Origin: Prorocentrum cordatum
Lineage: Eukaryota
NCBI GenBank assembly: GCA_963575745.1
Contig: CAUYUJ010000239.1
Span: 62,001 to 116,464 of the forward strand
DNA: 54,464 nucleotides
Direction: 5' to 3'
Shown here: one piece after another, positions 14,380 to 29,179 of the stretch
How the letters are laid out: each line of letters starts with the position of its first letter
Position numbering within the stretch: the first letter of the stretch is position 1
Made by a program: the position numbers and the translations under genes
The notes under the pieces: generated by a model
What the model saw: only the letters and a program-made list of their open reading frames with translations
What the model was told of the DNA's origin: nothing
Databases searched by the model: none

Positions 14380-15856
14380 CTTGGCAGCGTCCAAAACCCG
14401 GATAGCGCTGCCAGGCACGCGTCCACGCGTTTTCTTTTGGACGGGTTTTTCCCTTCCTTCCGTCCGCGGTTTTCTTTTGGGCGGGGTTTTTTCCGGGGGA
14501 AGGGGTGGGGCGCGCCCCGGCTTCTCTTGCCGAGGTCGCGAATCCGGAGGGCCGAAGCCCCCGGACCCCCCCCCCGGCGTTCGCCCCGGGCTTTTCCCTG
14601 AGGGGAAAGGTTCCCCGCGGATTCGGAAGCCTCTGCCCTACCCCCCGCCCGGGGAAGGGGCTCCCAGCCGCGCCGGAAGCCCCTTCTCCACCTGGAGCAG
14701 TTTAACGACCTGCTCAGGTCCGAGCCTTTTAACGCCTTACTTAGAGCCGCGAATCAGTCGGAGCCTTTCAACGCCATGCTCAGGGCCGCGAACCGCGCGC
14801 CCGGGGTCCTGCCCCGGGCCGCGCGAGCGGCAACCCCCGGCCCTCGCCCCGGGGCCGCGCGCGCCCGGGGTCTCGCCCCCCGGGCCGCTCACGCACACGG
14901 TTTACGCGTGTGGGGGCAGCCCCACGCGCGCGGTTTAGCGTGCGTGGGGGCGCCAGACACATCGTGTGGCGGAGCTCTTGAGACGTTGGAAAGCTTCCCT
15001 GGCAAGCGCTGAATACTCTGGAAAGCCTTCCTGAAGAGCTCTGGGGGGCCCCCCTGAAGCGCTTCTGAAGCGCTGCCAGCGACGCTTCCACGCGTGCCTC
15101 CACGCGTGCAGGCACGCGTGGACGCGTGCCTGAAGCGCTCCCGGACGGGCTGCCGGTTCCGGCAACTTTCTGCGGGGATCGTGGAGCGGCGGAGGTGGGC
15201 GCGTGCCCCTTACCATCCACCTCCGGCTTCTAATCTGAAACCCTCAGGTCGCAGCACACGCACGCGGCTTAGAGTGCGTGGAGACGCTGGGAACGTCGCG
15301 TGACGGAGCTCTGGAGACGCTGGAAAGCTTCCCTGCGAAGCTCTGAATACTCTGGAAAGCTTTCCTGAGGAGCTCTGGGAGCTCTCCTGAAGCGCTTCCG
15401 AAGCGCTGCCAGCGACGCTCCCACGCGTGCCTGCACGCGTGCAGGCACGCGTGGACGCGTGCCAGAAGCGCTCCCGGACACGCTGCGACCTTTTACAAGC
15501 CCCTCCGGGGATCGTGGACCCGCGAAGATGGGCTGCTGGCAGGCACCACCACCGTCCGGCTTCTAATCTAAAACCCCATAGTACTCAGAGAGCTCCCCGG
15601 GAAAAGAGGCACTCACTAGAAAGCTCTCCTGAAGAGCTCTGGGGGGCTCCCCTGAAGCGCTTCTGAAGCGCTGCCAGGTACGCTTCCACAGGCACGCGTG
15701 GACGCGTGAGGGAAGCGCTCCCGGACACGCTGCGAACTCAAAAAACCTCTGCGACGATTCTGGACCGCCGTGGAGGAGCTGCTGGCAGGCACCACCACCG
15801 TCCAGCTTCTAATCTAAAACCGTATCGCTGTCATGAAACTTTCCGGGAACTTGGTT
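14380..15856 (-). mobile_element. Cluster of family-D non-autonomous Helitron2-like elements
   Basis: Terminus a|cttggcagcgtccaaaacccggatagcgctgcc (hairpin) at 14380. Opposite ends of type ccc.atag.ctcagagagctc.ccggg.a occur at 14379, ~15601 and (diverged) 15849. Internal cacgcgtg-rich blocks repeat. Confidence 0.75.
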
Positions 15857-15908
15857 GGGCGTTGGGGTCGGCTACACAGGGCGCGTGCGCCCTAGCCGTG
15901 CAGAGTCC

Positions 15909-18900
15909 CTAGGGTCCCTCACGCCCTCTCAACCTCTTTGGGGTTGGAGGCCCGAGGATCTCAGAGATAATCTGCCGAACACCTTGGAGCAGGCGTTCAC
16001 AAGCTGTGAGCTCGCTATCTGTAACAGTGGCCCCCAGAGGGAGTAAAGAAGCCTCCTGGAAAACTCGTCGCCAGTGGTTGTCCCCAAATGAGACCTCCAC
16101 ATAGCAACCTAGAGCAGAGCCTTCAACACTCACGCCACCGTCCCATCCTCCACGGATACGTTTGATACAATGTCTCTGTTGTCGCAAATATCTGAAGTCA
16201 ATCCATCTTCCCGCCCTTCCCCTCCTCGCCTCCCAAGTCAGCTCATCCGCAACACACTTGAACTCTCTGTAGATATGCTTCCACGGATCCGTCCCTACGG
16301 TGGCACACCTGATGTCATAATCCTCAGCAAGTTGATTCATATCATTTTGTAGACCATGCACTCTCCTGCGGTACGAACGATCACGGCATTCCCAGATCCC
16401 CCGGGCCCAGTTCACCACACACATACTATCTCCTGTCATTTCAACCGATAATGAGCCCTCCGAGCCTTCCTGCCAGACAGTTTCGTTGTTATACCCGTGG
16501 GCAATCCTACGAGCGAGCCTGTCGGAGTCCTCAGGGGAGTCCCACGTATCCACAGGGCAAGGAGCACAGGGCGGTTTCCTGAAGATGGGTTCCCATCGAG
16601 GCTGTATTTTCGTCATGCACGCAACTACATTCCACCAGTCCGTCGCATTCCACTTGATGCTGAACCAGCGTAAATTACCACTCGCCGCCAGCATAAGACA
16701 ATGCCAGCTGTCAGTGCTTGCATGCGCTCTCCCTCCCACTCTCCTCGTACCTTCCCTCCTCCTGGCTCCCGTGAACATGGATACAAGTGTGTCCCTCCGT
16801 AGTGACCATTCCCCCGCACAGTGTAACATAGCCTGAAGCGTCTGGCGCCAGGCTCGTGCTCCACGCATGTCAGTGAAGGCGAAGGCCCGCTCATGAAACT
16901 GGGCCAGCTCCAACGCAAACTCGAAATTGGCTCGGACCACCTTCTCTAAGAGACTGCAGTGGACAGCCTGCAAGAATAGCTCGTATGATTTCGGCGTCGT
17001 CCTGTCCCTGAACTCCTCCCACGTCTCCTCATCCCTCTTGTGTAATCCTCGCATACCGTTGAGACACCTCCCCTCCCAGACCATAATCCTCTCCAGCAGT
17101 CGTAGGTTGCACGGCCAGCCTATACATCCGCGGTACACCACAGACTGCACACGAGCGGCGTACCTGCGAAACTTCTCCTTGAGTGAGACCGATCTGGAGC
17201 GATAAAACTGAATGTCAGCAAAATAGGCCTTCCTCCCTTTCTCGAGTCGATGAGACAAACCGTGGTAACCTTTGATTTCCGAACTGAGCTTCACTCCTAG
17301 TACCTCCACCTCCTCCTTCCTCGGCATTACAACAGTCGAGCGCAAGTGCACTGGGAGATCCTCATCTCCAGAAATCGCACAGATGGCTGGCGAGAGCGGG
17401 CAGAGCAGCGGCGGATCGCCACAGGTGTACGTCTGGCCAAAAAGTACATATGTCAAAGAATCCTCCTTCCAGTCCATCCCTGCCCGTCTGAGTGTTACCG
17501 TCATCATACCGATCATCTGTTGTAGCTGGAGTTGCGATGCAGCACAGAGCGTAACATTGTCCGCCCACAAGAAGTGGTGTACAAGAGCACCGTCCGTCCC
17601 CTCCCCTTCCAGTCGGACACCGTATCCTAAGGTATCCCAAGTCTGAATCACAGATCCCCAGATGGCCTCCAAGACAATATTGAAAAGTATAGGTCCCTCC
17701 TTACCTCCCGTTCGGACCGATTTATTGTATCTCACCTCATCGCCGCACACGTTCTGAAACTCAAAGGTAGCAATGTTATCCAGCATGGGCTCCACAATGG
17801 CTCTGATGAGGCACACAGGGTACTTAAGGTACAGCATGGCCTTGATGATAGTGCGCAGTGTGACATTATCGAACGCCTTGCGTATGTCCAAGACTCCCAC
17901 GTGCATAGACTCCGCCTTCCCCCACACATTTGCGTGTCTAGTAAGATGTGATAGTGGTGCCGCGACGTTAGTGACCTTCTGATCCTTCTCAAACCCGTAT
18001 GTGCACAACCGTCGGTTCACAGGAAATGCATCAATGAACTGCAACACACATGCCATGTACCATTTACTCATCACACTGATCAGGCAAATCCCTCTGGTGT
18101 TGGAGAGTCGTGTAGCATCCCGCATCTTTGGCACAAGTTGGATACTGAGCTGCCTCCACGTCTCAGGGCTAGAGGCACCCTGCTCGAAAATCCTCTGAAA
18201 AGCACGCCGAACAAACAAGAGGCTCCTCCACGGCAACTCACGGATGACCTCAGCAACGATTCCATCGCTACCGGGTGCCGTGCCAGGCTTCAAAGACGCA
18301 CGAGCCTGCATGAGCATGCCCATCGTGATGACTCTTCCCTCCACCCCACGGTCGTTGTGTCTGAGCTCCTGAAAGGCCTCCAAAGTCCGTTTTTCCTCCT
18401 CCGAGTTCGTGTAAGACGCCGTCGCATACCTAGTGATCTCCGTACTCCACCTAGTCCTGTCCATTGTCAGCACACCCTCACACTCCAGCTCCTTGAGGAT
18501 ACACCGTGAGGTCTTACTGGATCCCTTGTGGTCCTGCAGGAGTTGGTTCCTCCTATGCTGTCTCCTAAGGGTCTTCCTCCTACGCAGCAGTTGTTTACGA
18601 GTATTCCCAAGGGCCCCACGCCTGATGGCAGACTCCACCTCTATGAGCTCCCTGGGCCTCTGAATAGGTTTGCAGTTGGGGCGCCCCTTAGTGTGGTCAA
18701 CATGCTTTGCCGTCTCCAAGAGTACCCGTCCGACCTGCTGTAGGTCCGTCCCTACCGCGTCAGACGCAAGCCCCTCAATCGACACATCCGCAAGCACACG
18801 AAACATGTTCCTCGCCGTGTCATCCGTCGGCTGCCAGCCAACCATGGACACAGGGCGGGGTGGCAAAGCTGGGCGCCTGATCTCCGTAGTCTTGAGATTT

Positions 18901-19691
18901 ACCCAGACCAGAGCGTGATCACTATAGGCACTGGCTTTTGCACGTATACCTGGCGTAGCTTTGATGGGTTCCACAAACTGGACCTGGCATCTCATTTCCT
19001 GGTGAGCTCTTGCCTCATCCGCGCACCAACGTGTAGGGATGAGTATATAGTCAAGCACACGCTGCACATGTGTGGAACAGTACGGTATATGTGTGATACG
19101 TCGAGCTCCATATGTGTTCGCCGCACAGATCCCCCAAGTACTCATGAACCTCATAAGCATGTCCCTCCTCTCTGCATGGTAGTTCGCCTCCTCCCTCCTC
19201 CCGTCCACCTGCATAAGACCTCCTCCCGTCATTCCCAGCATATCTGGTTCAAGTTCCGTCTGAGCATCCATCCCCACCCATGGTATGACTCCAGCCTGTG
19301 TAGTTTGAAACATAGTAACACTGCACTTTGTAAGTACATCTAAGTATTCCCCCAAGTGGTCCACCTCACGCATCACGCATGGTAGATACACTGATGTAAC
19401 TAGAGCACCCCTGAATTCGACACACGCAAATCGTACCCCACTCCGTCGTGCAATCACATGTGGTGCCCAATCCCTGCACCATGCAACCGCCGCCTTGGAG
19501 CAGGAGCTATAGTGAATCTCCCATCCACATCTATTAAAAGTATTTGCACTGGTATGCTCACACTCTTGCAGGCACACCATTTGAATTGACCTGGCTTCAC
19601 ATGCAGCGACCAGGTTGGGCACTTGACCGTCGGATATTTTCTGCACATTCCAGGTTGCAACAACGGTCTCTGTCGCAGCCCTACCGCCCCG
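15909..19691 (-). CDS. LINE ORF2: APE endonuclease, reverse transcriptase, circularly permuted RNase H
   Basis: APE motifs TWNV, CLQE, SVYLP, LDYIL, SDH. RT motifs PGSDGI, LVPK, TRGICL, LDIRKAFD, WADN. RNase H motifs GDS, HIYRE..ADEL, WDGG, SELTA. The frame is open back to the ORF1 stop at 19692-19694. Confidence 0.93.
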   Translation of the reverse strand, partial: RGGRAATETVVATWNVQKISDGQVPNLVAACEARSIQMVCLQECEHTSANTFNRCGWEIHYSSCSKAAVAWCRDWAPHVIARRSGVRFACVEFRGALVTSVYLPCVMREVDHLGEYLDVLTKCSVTMFQTTQAGVIPWVGMDAQTELEPDMLGMTGGGLMQVDGRREEANYHAERRDMLMRFMSTWGICAANTYGARRITHIPYCSTHVQRVLDYILIPTRWCADEARAHQEMRCQVQFVEPIKATPGIRAKASAYSDHALVWVNLKTTEIRRPALPPRPVSMVGWQPTDDTARNMFRVLADVSIEGLASDAVGTDLQQVGRVLLETAKHVDHTKGRPNCKPIQRPRELIEVESAIRRGALGNTRKQLLRRRKTLRRQHRRNQLLQDHKGSSKTSRCILKELECEGVLTMDRTRWSTEITRYATASYTNSEEEKRTLEAFQELRHNDRGVEGRVITMGMLMQARASLKPGTAPGSDGIVAEVIRELPWRSLLFVRRAFQRIFEQGASSPETWRQLSIQLVPKMRDATRLSNTRGICLISVMSKWYMACVLQFIDAFPVNRRLCTYGFEKDQKVTNVAAPLSHLTRHANVWGKAESMHVGVLDIRKAFDNVTLRTIIKAMLYLKYPVCLIRAIVEPMLDNIATFEFQNVCGDEVRYNKSVRTGGKEGPILFNIVLEAIWGSVIQTWDTLGYGVRLEGEGTDGALVHHFLWADNVTLCAASQLQLQQMIGMMTVTLRRAGMDWKEDSLTYVLFGQTYTCGDPPLLCPLSPAICAISGDEDLPVHLRSTVVMPRKEEVEVLGVKLSSEIKGYHGLSHRLEKGRKAYFADIQFYRSRSVSLKEKFRRYAARVQSVVYRGCIGWPCNLRLLERIMVWEGRCLNGMRGLHKRDEETWEEFRDRTTPKSYELFLQAVHCSLLEKVVRANFEFALELAQFHERAFAFTDMRGARAWRQTLQAMLHCAGEWSLRRDTLVSMFTGARRREGTRRVGGRAHASTDSWHCLMLAASGNLRWFSIKWNATDWWNVVACMTKIQPRWEPIFRKPPCAPCPVDTWDSPEDSDRLARRIAHGYNNETVWQEGSEGSLSVEMTGDSMCVVNWARGIWECRDRSYRRRVHGLQNDMNQLAEDYDIRCATVGTDPWKHIYREFKCVADELTWEARRGRAGRWIDFRYLRQQRHCIKRIRGGWDGGVSVEGSALGCYVEVSFGDNHWRRVFQEASLLPLGATVTDSELTACERLLQGVRQIISEILGPPTPKRLRGREGP

Positions 19692-20625
19692 TCAATGATT
19701 AGGGCACCGTAGTGTCTGAAGAAACTGCACCTGGTTAGTGTCAGGCTCAACGTGTGTCAAATTGGCGCCATAGAGGTTCCATCCTTTTGTCGGTCCCCAT
19801 TCTGCAATCAACGTCTTTTGTGTAGTATCCTCAGCATTCGGCATATACCACATATATGTCATTGGCGGACCCGTCTCACCTCGAAGAATAGCCGTCGCAT
19901 TGCCCTTGATATCAGAAAATAGTGCTTGAAATCTTCCTACCGCCCGAACATGTTCTATCTTCCATGGCTGGCATTCAACTTGCAATCGCACATTGGGAGG
20001 CAATGAAGCGAGTCCCCGCCTGTAGTCATTCTCCCACACACGTTTCGCTTCCCATAGGATCTCAGAGGATGTACCTGGTTTGAAATAGATCCTACCCCTC
20101 GTGTACGGCCAATATATGCCAGTATTCTCCTAAACCGTCCGATCCAAGTCCAGTGCCACCCTCTGTGTAGCACCAATTTGTTTAGAGTCAATAAGACCAT
20201 TCATCGCCGTCGTCAGTGCCTCCTGTGAAAGAGCCTCCGGCTGACGTATCTCACGGTTCCTCCATCCCTCCCTTGAAACCCATCCCTTGAACTCAACATA
20301 ACGTGGATTCCAAGCAGGATCGTGCCTGTCCGTACCCGCCTTCGTGGATCCACTTGCTACCGACAGCCCGTCCCCCTGCTTGAGCTTCTGAACTTCATTG
20401 GTGAGGTCCTGGATCGCCGACTCTGTTTTCGAGACCCTGGAGTCCAGAGATGTTTTTCCCTCCTCCTTTGACATTACGAGCACGGACAGCTCTAGCAAAC
20501 GCCCCACCCCCATCATCAATTGTCATGTCCTGGCCCGTCGCATGCAAGCCTGGAGCACCTGCAACTGAAGAACCTGCTGGCATCGCTGGTGCAGCACCTG
20601 AAACTGAAGAACCTGCTGCAGCCAT
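19692..20625 (-). pseudogene. LINE ORF1 (coiled-coil, gag-like) with an internal TAG at 20130-20132 and a probable frameshift near 20480-20520
   Basis: ORF pieces 20130-20519 and 19692-20039 share one frame. Heptad-like LDSRVSKTESAIQDLTNEVQKLKQ. Candidate ATG at 20625 (MAAAGSS) lies in another frame. Confidence 0.65.
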
Positions 20626-21085: not shown

Positions 21086-23128
21086 AGCCAAAACCCGGAT
21101 AGCGCTGCACGCGTGCAGGCACGCGTGCACGCGTGCCTGAAGCGTTCCCAGAATACTCTAGAAAGCTTGCCTGAAGAGCTCTGGGGAGCTCTCCCCAAGC
21201 TCTTCTGAAACGCTGCCAGCGACGCTTCCGCGCGTGCCTGCACGCGTGCAGGCACGCGTGGACGCGTGCCGGATGCGCTCCCGGGCGCGCTGCGAAGTTT
21301 TAAAAGCCCCTCCGGGGATCGTGGACCGGCGAAGATGGGCGCGTCCGCCTCGCCACCTACCTCTGGCTTCTTCTTTGAAAATCCTCAGCTCTCCAAGGAG
21401 TTATCGGGGAACTTGGTAGCGTCCAAAACCCGGATAGCGCTGCCAGGCACGCGCCCACGCGTGCCTGCACGCGTGCAGGCACGCGTGCACGCGTGCCTGA
21501 AGCGCCCCCGGGATACTCTAGATAGCTTTCCTGAAGAGCTCTGGGGAGCTCTCCTCAAGCGCTGTTGAAGCGCTGCCAGCGACTCTTCCGCGCGTGCCTG
21601 CACGCTTGCAGGAACGCGTGGACGCGTGCCAGAAGCGCTCCCGGATACGCTGCGAAGTTTTACAAGCCCCTTCCAGGGATCGTGGACCAGCAAAGATGGG
21701 CGCGCCCCCCTCGCCACCCACCTCCGGCTTCTTCTCTGAAACCCTCAGCTCTCCAAGGAGCTATCCGGGAAAAACCCGGATAGCAAAGAGGCATACTCTG
21801 GAACGCTTTCCTGAAGAGCTCTGGGGAGCTCTCCTGAAGTGCTTCTGAAGCGCTGCCAGGCACGCTTCCACGCGTGCCTGCACGCGTGCAGGCACGCGTG
21901 GACGCGTGCCAGAAAGCGCTCCCGGACACGCTGCGACCTCCGACAACTCGCTGCGACGACTCTGGACCGGCGAAGATGGGGGCTGCTGGCAGGCACACCC
22001 ACCGTCCGGCTTCTGATCTAAAACCTTATAGCTCTCAGAGAGCTCTCCGGGAAACTAGCTGCACCCCGCGCCGGAATTCCTCTAGCTCGTCGTTGCCGAA
22101 GAGCTCTACGAGGTAAGAGGCACTCACACTGGAAGGCTTTCCTGAAGAGCTCTGGGGAGCTCCCCCGAAGCGCTACTGAAGCGCTGCCAGGCTCGCTTCC
22201 ACGCGAGCCCGCACGCGTGGACGCGTGCCGGAAGCGCTCCCGGACACGCTGCGAACTTTTACAAGTGTCTGCGGGGATCGTGGACCGGCGAAGATGGGCT
22301 GCTGGCAGGCACCACCACCGTCCGGCTTCTAATCTAAAACCCTATAGCTCTCAGAGAGCTCTCCGGGAACATAGTGTTTTTAGAAGAGAAGCCAGCGGGT
22401 GCGCGTGCATCGCCGCACCCCCACGCTCCCCGCTCCACGATCCCCGCAGCGCCTCGCCGGGGCCTGCAGCGTGTCCGGGAGCGCTCCAGGTACGCTGCGC
22501 AGCGTGCCCCCACGCGTGCAGGCACGCGTGGAAGCGTCGCTGTCAGCGCTTCAGGAGCGCTTCAGGAGAGCTTTCCAGCGACCCTCGAGCTCCGCCGCGC
22601 GAGGTCTCCAGCGCCACCACGCACGTTTAAAGCGTGCGTCAGGCCGCCCTATGTTCTCTTGCTTGGCTATCCGGGTTTTGGACAACAACAGGTCGATGCC
22701 GAAGAGCTCTACGAGGTATTACTCTTTTAGCTTCGCCGCTAACGCTCTAACGGAAGCTCCACGAGTCATAACCTGTTGCTGTCCAAAACCCGGATAGCCA
22801 AGCAAGAGAACATAGGGCGGCCTGACGCACGCGTTAATCGCGCGTGGTGTCGCAGGAAACATCGCGCGGCGGAGCTCGAGGGTCGCTGGAAAGCTTTCCT
22901 GAAGCGCTCCTGAAGCGCTCCTGAAGCGCTGACAGCGACGCTTCCACGCGTGCCTGCACGCGTGGGGGCTCGCTGCGCAGCGTACCTGGAGCGCTCCCGG
23001 ACACGCTGCAGGCCCCGGCGAGGCGCTGCGGGGATCGTGGAGCGGGGAGCGTGGGAGTGCGGCGACGCACGCGCACCCGCCAGCTTCTCTTGTAACAACC
23101 CCATGTAGCCCAAGAGGCTATCCGGGAA
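21086..23128. mobile_element. Nested cluster of family-D and family-C elements plus family-B/A end fragments
   Basis: D copy 21412-21771 (cttggtagcgtccaaaacccggatagc...gctatccgggaa). Two C-type copies in opposite orientation at ~22370-22691 and ~22772-23128. B ends gaagagctctacgaggta at ~22115 and ~22718. Confidence 0.75.
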
Positions 23129-24680
23129 TTTTCAACCGAGCAAATGTCACCAAAAGGTCCGTCGTGGTTTTTCGAGCCAAACAGCCTTCCAGCGCTGTGG
23201 AATTACTCTTAAGCTTCCAGCAACAAGCTAAGGGAAGCTCTACGAGTTACTAGCTGCACCCCGCGCCAGGATTCCTCTGGCTAATCGATGCCGAAGAGCT
23301 CTATCTAGCTCATAAATGCCGAGGAGCTCTACGAGGCATTTCAACCGAGCAAAAGTCACCAAAAGGTCCGTCGAGATTGTTCGCCAACTAGCCCTCCAGC
23401 GCTGTGGAATTATTCTAAGAGCTTTGAGCAACTAGCTACGGGAAGCCCTACGAGTTACACTTCGATTCAGCAATGATTGAAAATATCGATCTGCATTGCC
23501 AGGGGCCCGTGATTCGAGTCCTATGAAGGGATATTATGTACAGTTGTGTGCATGATACCGCCGGGAACTTCAGAGCTTCCTTGAGCAATGCGGGCGCCGC
23601 AATCTCGCATTGCGCGCGCGAGGGCGCGGTCTCATGGAGGAGGACGTAGAGGAGAAGGCGAGGGAAAAAGCACCTCTGGGAGGAAATAATACACATACCA
23701 GACCGAGTTCAGGCGTCTGGACACTTTATCACCAGTACGAATAGTTGCTCGGCCCCAGCGCTGATAGTAGACTGATTTCAGGCGTCTAGATACTTTCAAC
23801 TAGCGCGCCTGACCATTTCCTTCCCATTGCTGTGCCGAACAGCTATGTAGCTCATCTGCAGCTGGAGTTAAGTCCAGAAAAGCATCACCATCTCGAAAAA
23901 TTATCAGAGTACGAATAGTTGTTCAGTCTCAGCGCTGATAGCAAACCGAGATCAGGCGTCTGGATACTGCAGACTATCGCGTCTGATGGTTCCCTCCCGA
24001 TTTCTGTGCTCGGGTTAACTCATCTGCAGCTCGGGTTAACTCAAGAAAACCATCACGATCTCCAAAAAAAAGCAGCGCACGAATAGTTCTTCAGCCCCTA
24101 GCGCTGATAGCAGACCGAGATCAGGCGTCTAGACACTGCAGTATATCGGGCATGATGATTCCCTTCCGATTGTGCCAAAGAGCTCTGTAGCTCATCTGCA
24201 GCTCGAGTAAAGTCAAGAAACTCGTCATCACCTCCAAAAAAATAGTAGAGCACGAATAGATTCGCGGACCTAGCTCGAGTAGCAGACCGAGTTCAGACCT
24301 CTAGATGCTCGAGACGAAAGCGCCTGATCATCCAGGATCGATGAAGTGCGCATACCAGCTCTGTAGCGCTCCTGAAGCTCGAGTTAAGTACAGAAAACCG
24401 ATAGCACCTGTCACGATGACACGAACAGCCGATCCCGCCTGCTGTTTGGCAGTAATAAGTACCCGATCGATCTGAGATCGAGACGGCGAGCGGGAATAAG
24501 ATCGACTATGGGGAAAAATACTAGAGCTCTAACGACCTGTTGAATTTTGAGAAATCGAATTTAAACAAATAAATCATTCACAAAACTTCCGTCGATAATT
24601 TTTGGCCAACTAGCCCCCTAGTGCGCCGGAATTACTCTTCTAGCTTCGCCGCTAACGCTCTTAGGGAAGCTCTACGAGTC
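23129..24680 (-). mobile_element. Older family-A fragments with degenerate ~177-bp repeats and stacked 5' ends
   Basis: ggaagc.ctacgagt ends at ~23248, ~23457 and ~24679. Diverged accgag.tcag units lie between. Confidence 0.75.
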
Positions 24681-24959: not shown

Positions 24960-25509
24960 TTTTGCGGTTTGCGGTCAGACCAGGCAGCGGCCGTCAGGGC
25001 CGCAGGTCAAGTTACCACAACAGGCAGAGACATGCCAAAAGCACGAGCTCTTTCAGTCCAGGGTGCTGGGCAGGCGGAGGACATGCCAAACGCACGAACT
25101 CGTGTAGGCTAGCAGAGACATGCCAAACGCACGAACTCTTGCAAGCCAGAGAGTAGGCGACTGGCAGCTCCTATTTCGGCTTGTGTGACAGTGCAGCTGG
25201 GAGGGAGAAGAAAGGCGTCAGCCATCATGTTATTGATCCAGATCGGTGCGTGGTCATAACCAATCAGCTCGGGAGAAGAAGTGAGGGAGGGGGAGAAATA
25301 ATAAGAATGCACGTCAAGAAGCCAAACACATCCAACGCCCATTTCGGACCGCCCTCCATCGAAAGCACCACGGAGAGCATTGATTTTGATGTTGTGATTA
25401 CGGATCTCCTGAATGATGTCATGTTTGTATATTCTTCCTGTGTTGCCCCTTCGTGCTTCCCAGGTCAACTCGCCCGCCCTTTCATTGCCTTCACGGCACA
25501 CCCGGGAAG
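24960..25509 (-). mobile_element. 5'-truncated LINE 3' fragment (permuted RNase H C-terminus plus 3' UTR) with a 5-bp TSD
   Basis: ORF 25109-25540 contains REGNERAGELTWEARRG...AFDGG...TVTQAE, homologous to the end of the 15909 ORF2. Short A tail. tggtt at 24955-24959 and 25510-25514 splits a family-A 3' hairpin (24927-25530). Confidence 0.8.
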
Positions 25510-25530
25510 TGGTTACCGCCCGGAAACTCG

Positions 25531-28500
25531 GTAGCAACATCTAATTCAGGATGAGTCGTTGGTCGACTCACCATTCCGTGCAATTCTCTCGGCTGAAGGC
25601 GAAGACTTTCAGAACCTCAATGGGGAGACCGTGCGGAGCCCGAGTGGACATGCTGGTATTCTTTTCCGCTCGGACCTCGCCAAACAGTTCCTAGACCAGC
25701 GTATTGGGGTAAGATATGCTGTGGTTGCGTTTCAACCCTTCATTTTTGCATCAATTTATTTGCCCCACAAGGGCACGATGGGGAAGACGGAAGTGGCAGA
25801 ATAGGGCATTGTTCAACTTTACCAGGACATACTCAGGAAGTGCGCTGTAGATTGCAAGCAGTTGCAACCACTTCACCATATCAAACATCTCGTCATCAGC
25901 ATCGATGCTAATGTTGAGGTCCATCAAAACTCCTTATCGGGGCACCTGCAGGTTTCGGGAGATGGGGTTCTACCTGATCAACGTGGAGGGCGTGGCGGGC
26001 ATGAAAAACGTGCGAGAATCATCAGAAGAGCCATGAGCGAGGCTCTAGTGGCCACCATGGGTATCTTGGGACTCCAGCTGGCTAACACCTTTGGGGCTCC
26101 GAGGCACAGCAAGGAGGAGGGGGGCACTACGTGGAGGAGTACGAGGGGCTATGAGCATCTATACGACTATCTAGCGGTACCCAAATCTTGGAAGCTCCCA
26201 CCAACAACTTCGACTTGGCTTCTTCCTGAGGCAGCTGGAAGAAAGAGATCTTTGGAAGGCGATCTATCATTAGACACGTTCTGGAGTGACCATAGGCTTC
26301 TATCACTCACGGCTCCGAGCATCGAGGACATACAGTTGGACCGTGCGAGCTGTCTTCCCAGGAAGATGGCACACTGGCATGTGGACCCTGGTGTGCCCTC
26401 ACGTGAGGCCGCTGCGCTTTTCGACCGTGCCCTTCTCCCCAGCTCACACATCTTCGGCAGTGCATCCGACACAGTAGTTAGGGAGGTGGTGGGTACCAAA
26501 CATTATTACGAGGAGGTGGGTTTGGAGGTGGAGGAGAACGGCAAGGATAAGAAGGAGCAGGCCAGAAGGACGAGGAGCAGGATGGTGGAGAACAGCGTGA
26601 TGGGCAACCCCCTGGAGTCCATGAGTGAGGGCCTCCTGAAGGCCGCGGAGTTAGCCCCGACTGGAACCCTGAGGAGGAGCTCAGGGACACCCAGATGGTC
26701 GGAGGAGCACGTACAGATCAGGCAGGCGCACTATGCTTTGCATAAGTTGTGGAAGAGAGGGGAAGTGGATGAGGAGACGTTCAAGTCAAGTAGGAGGAGG
26801 TGGAACAAAGTGAGAGGGGCCAGGAAGAGAGAGTGCATCGAACATGCCTATCGAGATGGAAGGAAACGTACAACGATTGTTCGGAGTCTGATTATTGATG
26901 GGGTACCATGTACTGATCGAAGTAAATGGACTGAGGCCCTCCGTCGACACGGCCTCACTAGATACTCCAGTGAAGATGAGAAGTCACGTACTGCGCACTG
27001 CCTGAGGGAGCTGAGGAAGAGGGCGGAGGAGGAGATGAGGAAGGAAGGTTGTACCAAGTGCCCACTAGACATGGGGGTGCTGCTCCAGACTCGTGCAAAG
27101 TCGAAAGTGGGGAAGGCTGTGGGGTCAGACGGCGTTTCGGCCGCTATGCTCAAGACACTCTCTTGGGAAACACTCCGTCTTGTACTGCAGGCCTTCCAGT
27201 CCCTTTATCAGCGCCAGATTGTCACACCAGAATCGTGGAGAAAGATCCTTGTCACAGTCATCCTGAAAAACAAGTTGAAGTGTTCCCTGGGCGAATCCAG
27301 GGGGTTAGTGTTACTCGGTGTCTTTGGTAAATGGTACAGCGGGTGCCTCACCCACCTAATTCAGCGGCACATCAGAGCGAGGGGATCGGGAGAATTTGCC
27401 CGATGCTATGGCTTTGTGCCGGAGCGTAGATGTCATGAAGTAACGGCGGGTCTTAAAAACGCCTGCCGCCATGCTGCACAGTGGGGGATGTCACATGTGC
27501 TCCACCTCGCCAGCCTTGACGTGGCCTGTGCTTTTGATTCCTTTACGGTACCTGTGGCGGCACAGGCTCTGGAATATATTGGCGTTAAACATCAGCTTGC
27601 ATACGCACTACTTGAGTGCTATCTCGACAACGAGGCGGAGTTCCGCTTCCAAGAGGTATCGACAGCTGGTGCACCTTGGAACCGATGCGTCCGCACGGGC
27701 TCGCTCGAGGCACCGACCTTGTGGATCGCCCTCTCCATTGCTGCCTTTGATGAGATTGCAAAGGGATGGCATGAGAAGGGGTGGGGGTGGTCTGTCTAGG
27801 ACGCGGGTGCATGTGTACGCAGCTGCGAACATCGGGACTGGAAAGTCACTAACATGTTGTGGGCCGATAATGTGATTTTGCTCGCGGCCAGCTCATTTCA
27901 ATTGACAACCATGATTGCCGACATGACGTATGCCCTCCGTCGCTTTGGGTTTGAACGGAAAGAGAGTAGTATTGAATATATGAAGCTAGGATGTGACCAT
28001 GACTTGGAGGTGCCTTTGGTTGTCCCGACAGCTGGCCCAAGGGAGGGCCAAGGGTGTCTGAGCTGCGCAAGCCATCTCCAGCTGTTTGAGCAGGAGAGGC
28101 GCACAAATGAGCATAAAGTATTGCCACATGTCATCAAACTCAAACAGGTTACGAAAATGGAGATCTTGGGTACTATGCTGGATAGAGAGTTCAAAATGCA
28201 TGCTGATATTGTTCACAGAATGAAAGAAATGGAGAAAGCATTTTGCAATGCCCGCCCCTTTTTCATGAATAGGCAGATTGCGATGAAGAAGAAAATCAGA
28301 AGATCTGTCACGATGGTGCAAACACGCTTTTTGTATGGCATTCAGGGCATCACCATAGATACGAGCACGTTGAAGTATATTCATTCACGTGAGGGCGAGC
28401 TCCTGTCAAAACTGGTTTGGCGAAGAAAAAAGTCCGAGGTGGGTTGGTCCATCTTTGGCCGACGCATGTTCGACATGGGGAAGAAAATATTGCAGAAGAT

Positions 28501-29179
28501 GGGCAAACCCAGCCTGGCCCAACTCACGCTCTACAAGCAGTGGATGTGGGGCCAAAGATATGGCGCTATCTTGTTTTCCAGTTGAGTTGGATACCTCACC
28601 TGACTTTGTGCAGAATGAGCCCTCGGTGACGGGGGGTTCTCAAGAGCTCGGAGAGTCCGTTGGGAGCAGACCATCTGGGGAGGAGCCATCACAAACACAT
28701 ACCTAGAATCGCCGCAAACGTATCACACACTGGCGCCGGCGGTGAACCGTCAACCTGGTCACCGGCGGTGAACCGTTTTTCTTAAAATCTGCATTTTCAA
28801 TTTTCGATGTTAATACGAGGTCGGTTCCCGGAAGTGAACCCATAGTATAAATCCCTTATTAGAGCTGAGCTGCTCTGGGGACGAAGTTTATATACGTATG
28901 CTTAGCGCAAAAATCTGCTTTCCCAAAGAAAACAAATAATTGAATATCTTTCAAATTCTAGCAAAACTGACCAAAAGTCACCACTTTGTCCGCCCCGGCC
29001 AGGTGGGCGAACTAGCTCCAACCCGCGCCAGAATTCCTCTAGCTCATCGATGACGAAGAGCTCTACGAGGTAATATGCGAAACAGTGTCAAGATGGCCAA
29101 AAGAACAGACGGGTATCCCTGGGGACCACCTCACCCACTCGCCCTGCCTGTGAGTTGCCAGAGGGACCGCGGACATCAA
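25531..29179 (+). pseudogene. Decayed LINE ORF2 (APE + RT), same clade as the 15909 element
   Basis: One frame with stops at 25802, 27797 and 28583. Motifs SIYLP, IDAN, YDYL, SDH, GSDGV, LDVACAFD, VRTG, WADN. Interrupted by a B element at 28730-29072. Confidence 0.88.
28730..29072 (-). mobile_element. Family-B non-autonomous Helitron2-like element with a rearranged 3' hairpin
   Basis: a|ctggcgccggcggtgaaccgtcaacc ... gaagagctctacgaggta. The LINE sequence continues on both sides without a TSD. Confidence 0.8.

Follow-up and report, generated by a model that had tools for sequence, protein, structure and literature searches.

The locus described here raises the question of whether the protein of a retroelement can end in an RNase H domain whose two halves stand in exchanged order. 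The window (the whole stretch of DNA that was analysed, 54,464 nucleotides) comes from Prorocentrum cordatum (assembly GCA_963575745.1, contig CAUYUJ010000239.1, positions 62,001 to 116,464 of the forward strand) and bears on its minus strand the second open reading frame (ORF2) of a long interspersed nuclear element (LINE). An earlier note, made from the letters of the window, had proposed that this ORF2 ends in a circularly permuted RNase H with all four catalytic acids kept. Our analysis indicates that its C-terminal ~190 aa are probably a circularly permuted RNase H of type 1, related to the archaeal/RVT_3 kind that lacks the basic protrusion, and that the permuted order is fixed in the lineage.

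Motifs and parts of the domain

In the canonical RNase H the structural elements follow one another as β1-β2-β3-αA-β4-αB-αD-β5-αE, an order from which the domain in the window departs. The last ~190 aa of ORF2, in the final sixth of the frame, read in order VEMTGDSMCVVNWARGIW, HIYREFKCVADEL, RGGWDGG and ATVTDSELTA, followed by the stop. The four acids, D58, D119, D154 and E197 in the numbering of the domain, are encoded on the minus strand by GAT (Asp, 16428-16430), GAT (Asp, 16245-16247), GAC (Asp, 16140-16142) and GAG (Glu, 16011-16013), so that the motif order and the codon positions of the earlier note stand as given. The parts of the domain are the following (HMM, hidden Markov model; iE, independent E-value; PDB, Protein Data Bank; AF2, AlphaFold2):

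15960-16538, minus strand: permuted RNase H domain in its full length (positions 3-197 of the family HMM; six-frame HMM scan, iE 2.2e-66)
16218-16448, minus strand: first part, corresponding to the canonical C-terminal half (C-half; aligns to chain positions 134-197 of PDB entry 4e19, and to positions 56-123 only of the RVT_3 profile; AF2)
16431-16448, minus strand: β4
16428-16430, minus strand: Asp of GDS
16401-16424, minus strand: αB
16317-16379, minus strand: long helix
16275-16283, minus strand: β5
16224-16256, minus strand: αE, with the Asp of AD at 16245-16247
16167-16217, minus strand: linker that connects αE, the former C-terminus, with β1, the former N-terminus (AF2)
16176-16211, minus strand: predicted short extra strand and short helix of the linker (E131-134 and H136-142; in the second model E137-140 and H142-145)
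15960-16166, minus strand: last part, corresponding to the canonical N-terminal half (N-half)
16128-16160, minus strand: β1, with the Asp of DGG at 16140-16142
16089-16121, minus strand: β2
16044-16070, minus strand: β3
15954-16025, minus strand: αA, with the Glu of SEL at 16011-16013

Homology of both halves to type-1 RNase H

A profile of 38 family sequences, compared with all PDB sequences, matched the RNase H1 of Halobacterium (4e19, E 3.6e-8) in two stretches, profile positions 141-211 falling on chain positions 63-126 and positions 54-129 on 134-198. A profile of 126 sequences (A2) lowered the E-value for the same protein to 5.8e-10 and again placed the two halves in exchanged order, the C-half by profile positions 73-147 on chain positions 134-197 (27.8 bits, iE 1.4e-5) and the N-half by positions 162-230 on 66-128 (14.0 bits, conditional E 1.4e-6). 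The next matches of A2 were LC11-RNase H1 (7.2e-9), its mutant 4h8k, Rv2228c and the RNase HI of Sulfolobus tokodaii, and the matches to archaeal-type RNase HI together spanned E 5.8e-10 to 3.7e-5. The swapped register recurred at lower scores in 3u3g, 4h8k and 3hst, and 3h08 was aligned by the N-half alone. In all displayed alignments FDGG fell on the Asp of DG, AEL on the Glu of AE, GDS on GDS and N..AD on NERAD; the four carboxylates (D, E, D, D) of DG, AE, (G/T)DS and N..AD align to the catalytic residues of 4e19 and of E. coli RnhA. Similarity of the C-half to PDB chains was found at domain iE values of 1.4e-5 to 5.2e-6. The question of swapped halves is answered, since the family profiles match RNase HI in two swapped stretches; together with the codons, the swapped-register alignment to 4e19 bears out that the C-half stands ahead of the N-half and that the four acids are kept.

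Pfam RVT_3 (PF13456) matched 25 of the 38 members (best E 5.8e-8). When 16 members were examined singly, 13 were matched, always by profile positions 56-123 (of 123) on the first part of the domain, and two of the 16 passed the curated cut-off. The N-half was compared by hhalign, as a profile of 125 family rows, with an alignment of 85 RNase HI sequences from enterobacteria for which E. coli rnhA had served as the seed (a poor canonical profile, because the relatives gathered are all at least 79% identical). This gave P 0.0011 and a score of 23.0 with family positions 3-70 on RnhA 3-61, FDGG falling on TDGS and AEL on MEL, against a maximum of 14.1 over 30 column shuffles and 14.4 for the reversed alignment; the similarity of the N-half to type-1 RNase H is thus present at a weak level. 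The C-half against RnhA 64-141 was marginal (P 0.0055, score 19.6, shuffle maximum 18.8), and hhalign of another profile (A1) against the single RnhA sequence returned a probability of 0.45% and E 0.13 for the C-half only.

Relatives, order of the halves and conservation

To collect relatives, the 230-aa tail was compared exhaustively by phmmer with 1.84 billion representative proteins. Matches at E <= 0.001 numbered 140 (44 of them at <= 1e-10), many collinear with the entire tail at 25-40% identity. In the long relatives P0016, P0037, P0144, P0150, P0015 and P0073, RVT_1 lies upstream of the domain, which therefore belongs to a LINE lineage. Only four fragments have a named source, the protein set of Pyramimonas sp. 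CCMP1952, a green alga, and are 47-90% identical; the others come from ENA, JGI and Logan assemblies. Two of the Pyramimonas fragments (P0002, 82% identical, and P0003, 90% identical) cross the junction αE-linker-β1. A word-index protein search found no homologue of the C-terminal region and, for aa 1-1030, one weak match only (P0285), the index being too insensitive for the permuted-domain family.

Among 164 proteins, a set that includes near-duplicate cluster members and is not composed of independent cases throughout, 120 have the C-half followed by the N-half and none has the reverse order; the remainder consists of 33 proteins with the C-half only (all ending at most 60 aa after it), 8 with the N-half only and 3 with neither. 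Of the 15 proteins of at least 600 aa, 14 contain, according to half-domain HMMs run with all filters off, a single C-half and after it a single N-half. In these 14 a canonical DG/AE half upstream of the domain, the finding that the earlier note had named as fatal to a permutation, was searched for with hmmsearch --max and not found, all other stretches scoring below 0. The fifteenth, P0122, has neither half and is an unrelated, probably repetitive protein: over its 942 aa, five weak and evenly spaced matches to positions 1-50 of the C-half HMM stand ~96 aa apart, and it may be built of a repeated GDS-helix piece or the matches may be due to chance. The comparison supports an order of C-half then N-half that is fixed across a LINE lineage with EEP endonuclease, reverse transcriptase (RT) and permuted RNase H, and the view that it is a trait of the lineage, not a local scramble, holds.

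In the 38-sequence alignment, whose members are 19-37% identical to the window domain, the consensus is composed of E..GDS..V..WLNG.W, RH.YRE.N..AD.LA, LR..FDGG...G...GW and T.T.AEL.AA, in this sequence. D154, G155 and E197 are invariant, and G57, D58, R112, E113, N115, A118 and D119 are conserved in at least 90% of the sequences. In the domain HMM alignment, 77 of the 82 rows covering all four acid sites read D-D-D-E, and the five exceptions lack one acid each.

Near-identical 31-letter words of 15900-16620 occur in 20 public runs from 16 studies, including marine, estuary and freshwater metagenomes, and four of these runs contain half or more of the words. To judge from these word matches, the element or its host seems to be widespread in plankton.

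Predicted structure

The AF2 model of the window domain, built on the 126-sequence alignment, has a mean pLDDT (predicted local distance difference test) of 90.8 and a pTM (predicted template modelling score) of 0.86. Its elements are H23-38, E52-57, H60-67, H75-95, E107-109, H116-126, E131-134, H136-142, E148-158, E161-171, E178-186 and H193-216. A second model, of the distant member P0104 (21% identical, 87-sequence alignment; pLDDT 87.5, pTM 0.81), has the same element order but lacks the N-terminal helix. Both models predict one compact domain, β4-αB-αD-β5-αE-linker-β1-β2-β3-αA, in which D58 stands after β4, D119 in αE, D154 in β1 and E197 in the first turns of αA, i.e., in their canonical places. 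In a comparison with 48,161 chains by VIA-align, RNase H was matched half by half only, with 17-30% identity and low Z; the superposition on 4e19 covers 65 aa with a root-mean-square deviation (rmsd) of 2.8 Å. Foldseek with the first model against PDB gave no RNase H among the matches listed (template modelling score <= 0.30; best E 5.2e-4, PelC), a result that counts neither for nor against permutation because a sequential search is expected to fail on a permuted fold. A feature search in the ESM Atlas stayed below the recognition threshold, returned only phage clusters labelled 'hypothetical' and was discarded.

According to the models, the chain would enter at β4, run through β4-αB-αD-β5-αE, cross a linker of ~25 aa and end with β1-β2-β3-αA, the new termini lying in what was the αA-β4 loop. 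The two halves would then assemble within one chain into a single RNase H sheet and gather D58, D119, D154 and E197 around a two-metal site.

Contrary evidence and alternative explanations

Several observations weigh against a permuted and active RNase H. The N-half match is weak when taken alone (independent E 0.24 against PDB), Pfam matched none of eight N-half-only pieces, a profile of the N-halves of eight natural fragments found no RNase H in PDB, and the C-terminal 230 aa of the window ORF2 had no Pfam match alone. That the four acids meet in one site we infer from the element order alone. In RNA run X20, coverage of the stretch 15900-16620 is confined to 15900-15968. The window copy has a Lys codon at 16257-16259 (N115K) within RExNxxAD, a site occupied by Asn in 144 of 147 family rows. 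In runs X1, X3 and X7 every contig that includes 16257 carries an Asn codon, and N115K is for these reasons a private change of the window copy at a conserved site. Because of N115K and of the missing ATG ahead of the endonuclease (see below), this particular copy may have lost its activity, whether or not the family as a whole has kept it.

The alternative that survives best, although we consider it unlikely, accepts the permuted domain and regards it as non-enzymatic, a structural or nucleic-acid-binding module either in the window copy or in the whole family, for which the RNase H-derived connection domain of retroviral RTs offers an analogue. The state of the window copy, with N115K and no ATG for ORF2, speaks in its favour, as does the loss of one acid in five of the 82 rows. 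It is weakened by the retention of D-D-D-E in the other 77 at 19-37% identity, together with G57, S59, R112, E113 and N115, because such conservation is typical of selection on catalysis; moreover, the other copies in the three runs read Asn at 115.

Somewhat less probable again is a half-RNase H fusion, in which only the part with GDS...RExNxxAD derives from RNase H and an unrelated β-β-β-α module has acquired its DGG and AEL by chance. Against this, five different RNase H sequences show the same register, in which D falls on D and E falls on E, none of the 30 shuffles came near the hhalign score of the N-half with bacterial RNase HI, D154, G155 and E197 are invariant, and VIA-align superposes 65 aa on 4e19. 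Half of an RNase H sheet could not fold alone, and AF2 yields one compact domain.

Tandem or partly duplicated RNase H domains, with a canonical half upstream and the downstream half left over from a second copy, are largely refuted and very improbable. The first model has a helix ahead of β4 ('LARRIAH', residues 23-38 of the 230-aa piece) that could be the remnant of an earlier αA, but it is missing in the second model; outside the domain the N-half HMM gives only negative scores in the 14 domain-bearing long proteins, and no protein has the N-half before the C-half or multiple halves. A local rearrangement or assembly error is refuted, since the same order is found in 120 proteins from other sources, in the X7 contig and in the second copy in the window. 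A permuted type-1 RNase H, with the order of its halves shared across the lineage, is the reading we retain.

The host element and its surroundings

The features of the element, and the second copy of the domain in the window, are as follows:

15909-19691, minus strand: LINE ORF2, a single open frame of 1260 aa from stop to stop, TAG stop at 15909-15911
18897-19664, minus strand: EEP/APE-type endonuclease domain (aa ~10-265, limits approximate; Pfam Exo_endo_phos)
17289-18107, minus strand: RT domain (aa 529-801; Pfam RVT_1, E 1.9e-13)
25121-25546, minus strand: second copy of the domain, 5'-truncated (domain HMM iE 2.6e-31; tblastn 36% identity, E 9.6e-9)

The frame at 15909-19691 is the ORF2 of an APE-type LINE, as judged from its sequence, because it matches RVT_1, has a weak EEP match (Exo_endo_phos, E 0.014, aa 12-61) and has an RT closest, among solved chains, to human L1 ORF2p (2.7e-10) and then to R2Bm of Bombyx (1.6e-9). 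The order is that of an APE-type LINE, the weakly matched N-terminal EEP/APE endonuclease being followed by a LINE-type RT. In the relative P0144 the Pfam match to EEP reaches E 0.001. Two motifs of the window ORF2, TWNVQ (aa 13) and SDH (aa 257), are taken to be typical of APE. The first Met of the 1260-aa frame is aa 38, inside the endonuclease domain, so no ATG lies ahead of the latter. A poly-A was not seen after the ORF2 stop.

Motif C of the RT reads WADN (17556-17570, minus strand) in place of YADD, and alignment to R2Bm places WADN on YADD. [WY]ADN occurs in all ten family proteins that cover motif C, and LWADN in the second LINE of the window (~27800-27900, plus strand), whereas YADD is kept in the outgroup P0285. 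A conserved Asn replacing the second catalytic Asp of motif C is unusual for an RT, and xADN is reminiscent of the GDN box in the polymerases of negative-strand RNA viruses.

Upstream of ORF2 and in the same frame, 19692-20525 (minus strand) is an ORF1-like region with a coiled-coil-like start, both set apart from ORF2 and interrupted by in-frame stops (TGA 19692-19694, TAG 20130-20132 and TGA 20523-20525). The ORF2 of the relatives begins where the 1260-aa frame begins. The arrangement could reflect read-through or reinitiation, or decay of the window copy. A satellite-like repeat of ~333 bp lies on both sides of the LINE (14923-15850 and 21151-23130) in the same orientation, its copies being 71-90% identical to one another, and the LINE either sits inside a tandem array or has such repeats in its own untranslated regions.

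The six-frame HMM scan detected two copies of the domain in the window, a complete one at 15960-16538 and the one at 25121-25546. The latter begins at HMM position 76 of 198, within the C-half, and its sequence marks it as a 5'-truncated LINE remnant. The relative that the earlier note had placed at 25109-25509 is therefore real and has the same order; not all four acids are present in it, as the GDS strand is absent and AD has become AG (REGNERAGEL), with DGG and AE kept. Its neighbour is a second LINE of the same broad lineage (25607-28585, plus strand; 26% identical over ORF2 aa 52-897, stop at 27797-27799), whose 5' end adjoins the truncated minus-strand copy and downstream of which the six-frame HMM scan of the window detected no permuted RNase H.

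As to the assembly, a single contig from an independent run (X7) extends without gaps across 15900-16620 and differs by 18 substitutions, and runs X1 and X3 yield many short deep contigs, as expected of a multi-copy repeat. The element is thus present in multiple copies, including 5'-truncated ones, as judged from the copy at 25121-25546 and from the many fragmented deep contigs in X1 and X3.

Comparison with known RNase H domains

The closest known proteins are the archaeal-type RNase HI without basic protrusion, i.e., 4e19/4nyn (Halobacterium), 3u3g (LC11-RNase H1), 2ehg/3aly (Sulfolobus tokodaii) and 3hst (Rv2228c). The LINE domain shares with archaeal-type RNase HI and RVT_3 the motifs DG, AE, GDS and H..RE.N..AD.LA, the four carboxylates and the same set of elements; it differs in having β4...αE before β1...αA and in the linker of ~25 aa with its extra strand and helix. 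No RNase HI member or matched Pfam model covers it collinearly.

RNase H is one of the best-studied folds, a model of protein folding and a core module of retroelements and retroviruses. RNase H-bearing LINEs include the I, Tad1, ingi and LOA clades, and plant L1 elements with an archaeal-like RNase H were reportedly described by Smyshlyaev et al. in 2013. With these LINEs the domain described here shares its place at the C-terminal end of an APE-RT ORF2 and a presumed role in the removal of the RNA template. To our knowledge, the RNase H domains of these LINEs are in canonical order, and the history of RNase H in retroelements has been traced as one in which the domain was gained, lost and replaced repeatedly but always remained collinear. 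What appears new is the rotated chain order, the presence of RNase H in LINEs being already known.

No retroelement with a permuted RNase H emerged from our literature searches or from the accessible portions of PMC13524379 and PMC10830420, two papers that use 'permuted' for label shuffling and for the RT thumb; the remark of the earlier note that it knew of none described has met no counterexample. Neither 'permut' nor 'circular' occurs in the main text of the RNase H-like superfamily survey by Majorek et al. (2014, PMC3985635). A structure screen of 2025-26, CIRPIN (PMC13552848; preprint 10.1101/2025.11.18.689110), reports as new a natural circular permutation in the RNase H-like fold class; its accessible portion names no proteins and makes no mention of retroelements, catalytic residues or lineage. 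In CATH 'RNase H-like' denotes the whole superfamily. It is possible that the CIRPIN permutant belongs to the same family as the LINE domain.

Proposed function and implications

Canonical LINE RNase H domains are thought to strip the RNA template. By analogy, the permuted domain would degrade the RNA template of the RNA:DNA hybrid after target-primed reverse transcription. The permutation likely began with a tandem duplication, after which the two outer halves were lost; the duplication intermediate was not found. In our judgement the chances are even that the domain is a catalytically competent natural RNase H1 in circularly permuted form, the first to be described in any retroelement, and fixed in a LINE lineage of marine and freshwater plankton whose RT has also exchanged the YxDD box for xADN.

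If the reading is true, a natural permutant with its tetrad under selection would reveal one more way in which the domains of retroelements can evolve. It would also explain why standard searches score these LINEs as lacking RNase H or as having a partial RVT_3, with the consequence that surveys miscount them. With the chain entering at β4, near the active site, and not at β1, the nuclease would hang from the RT differently than in known RT-RNase H enzymes, and the distance at which the RNA is cut behind the polymerase site in target-primed reverse transcription could change. The domain would then provide a natural test of the influence of chain connectivity on RNase H folding and on RT-RNase H coupling, as well as a diagnostic marker for a poorly known LINE lineage of algae.

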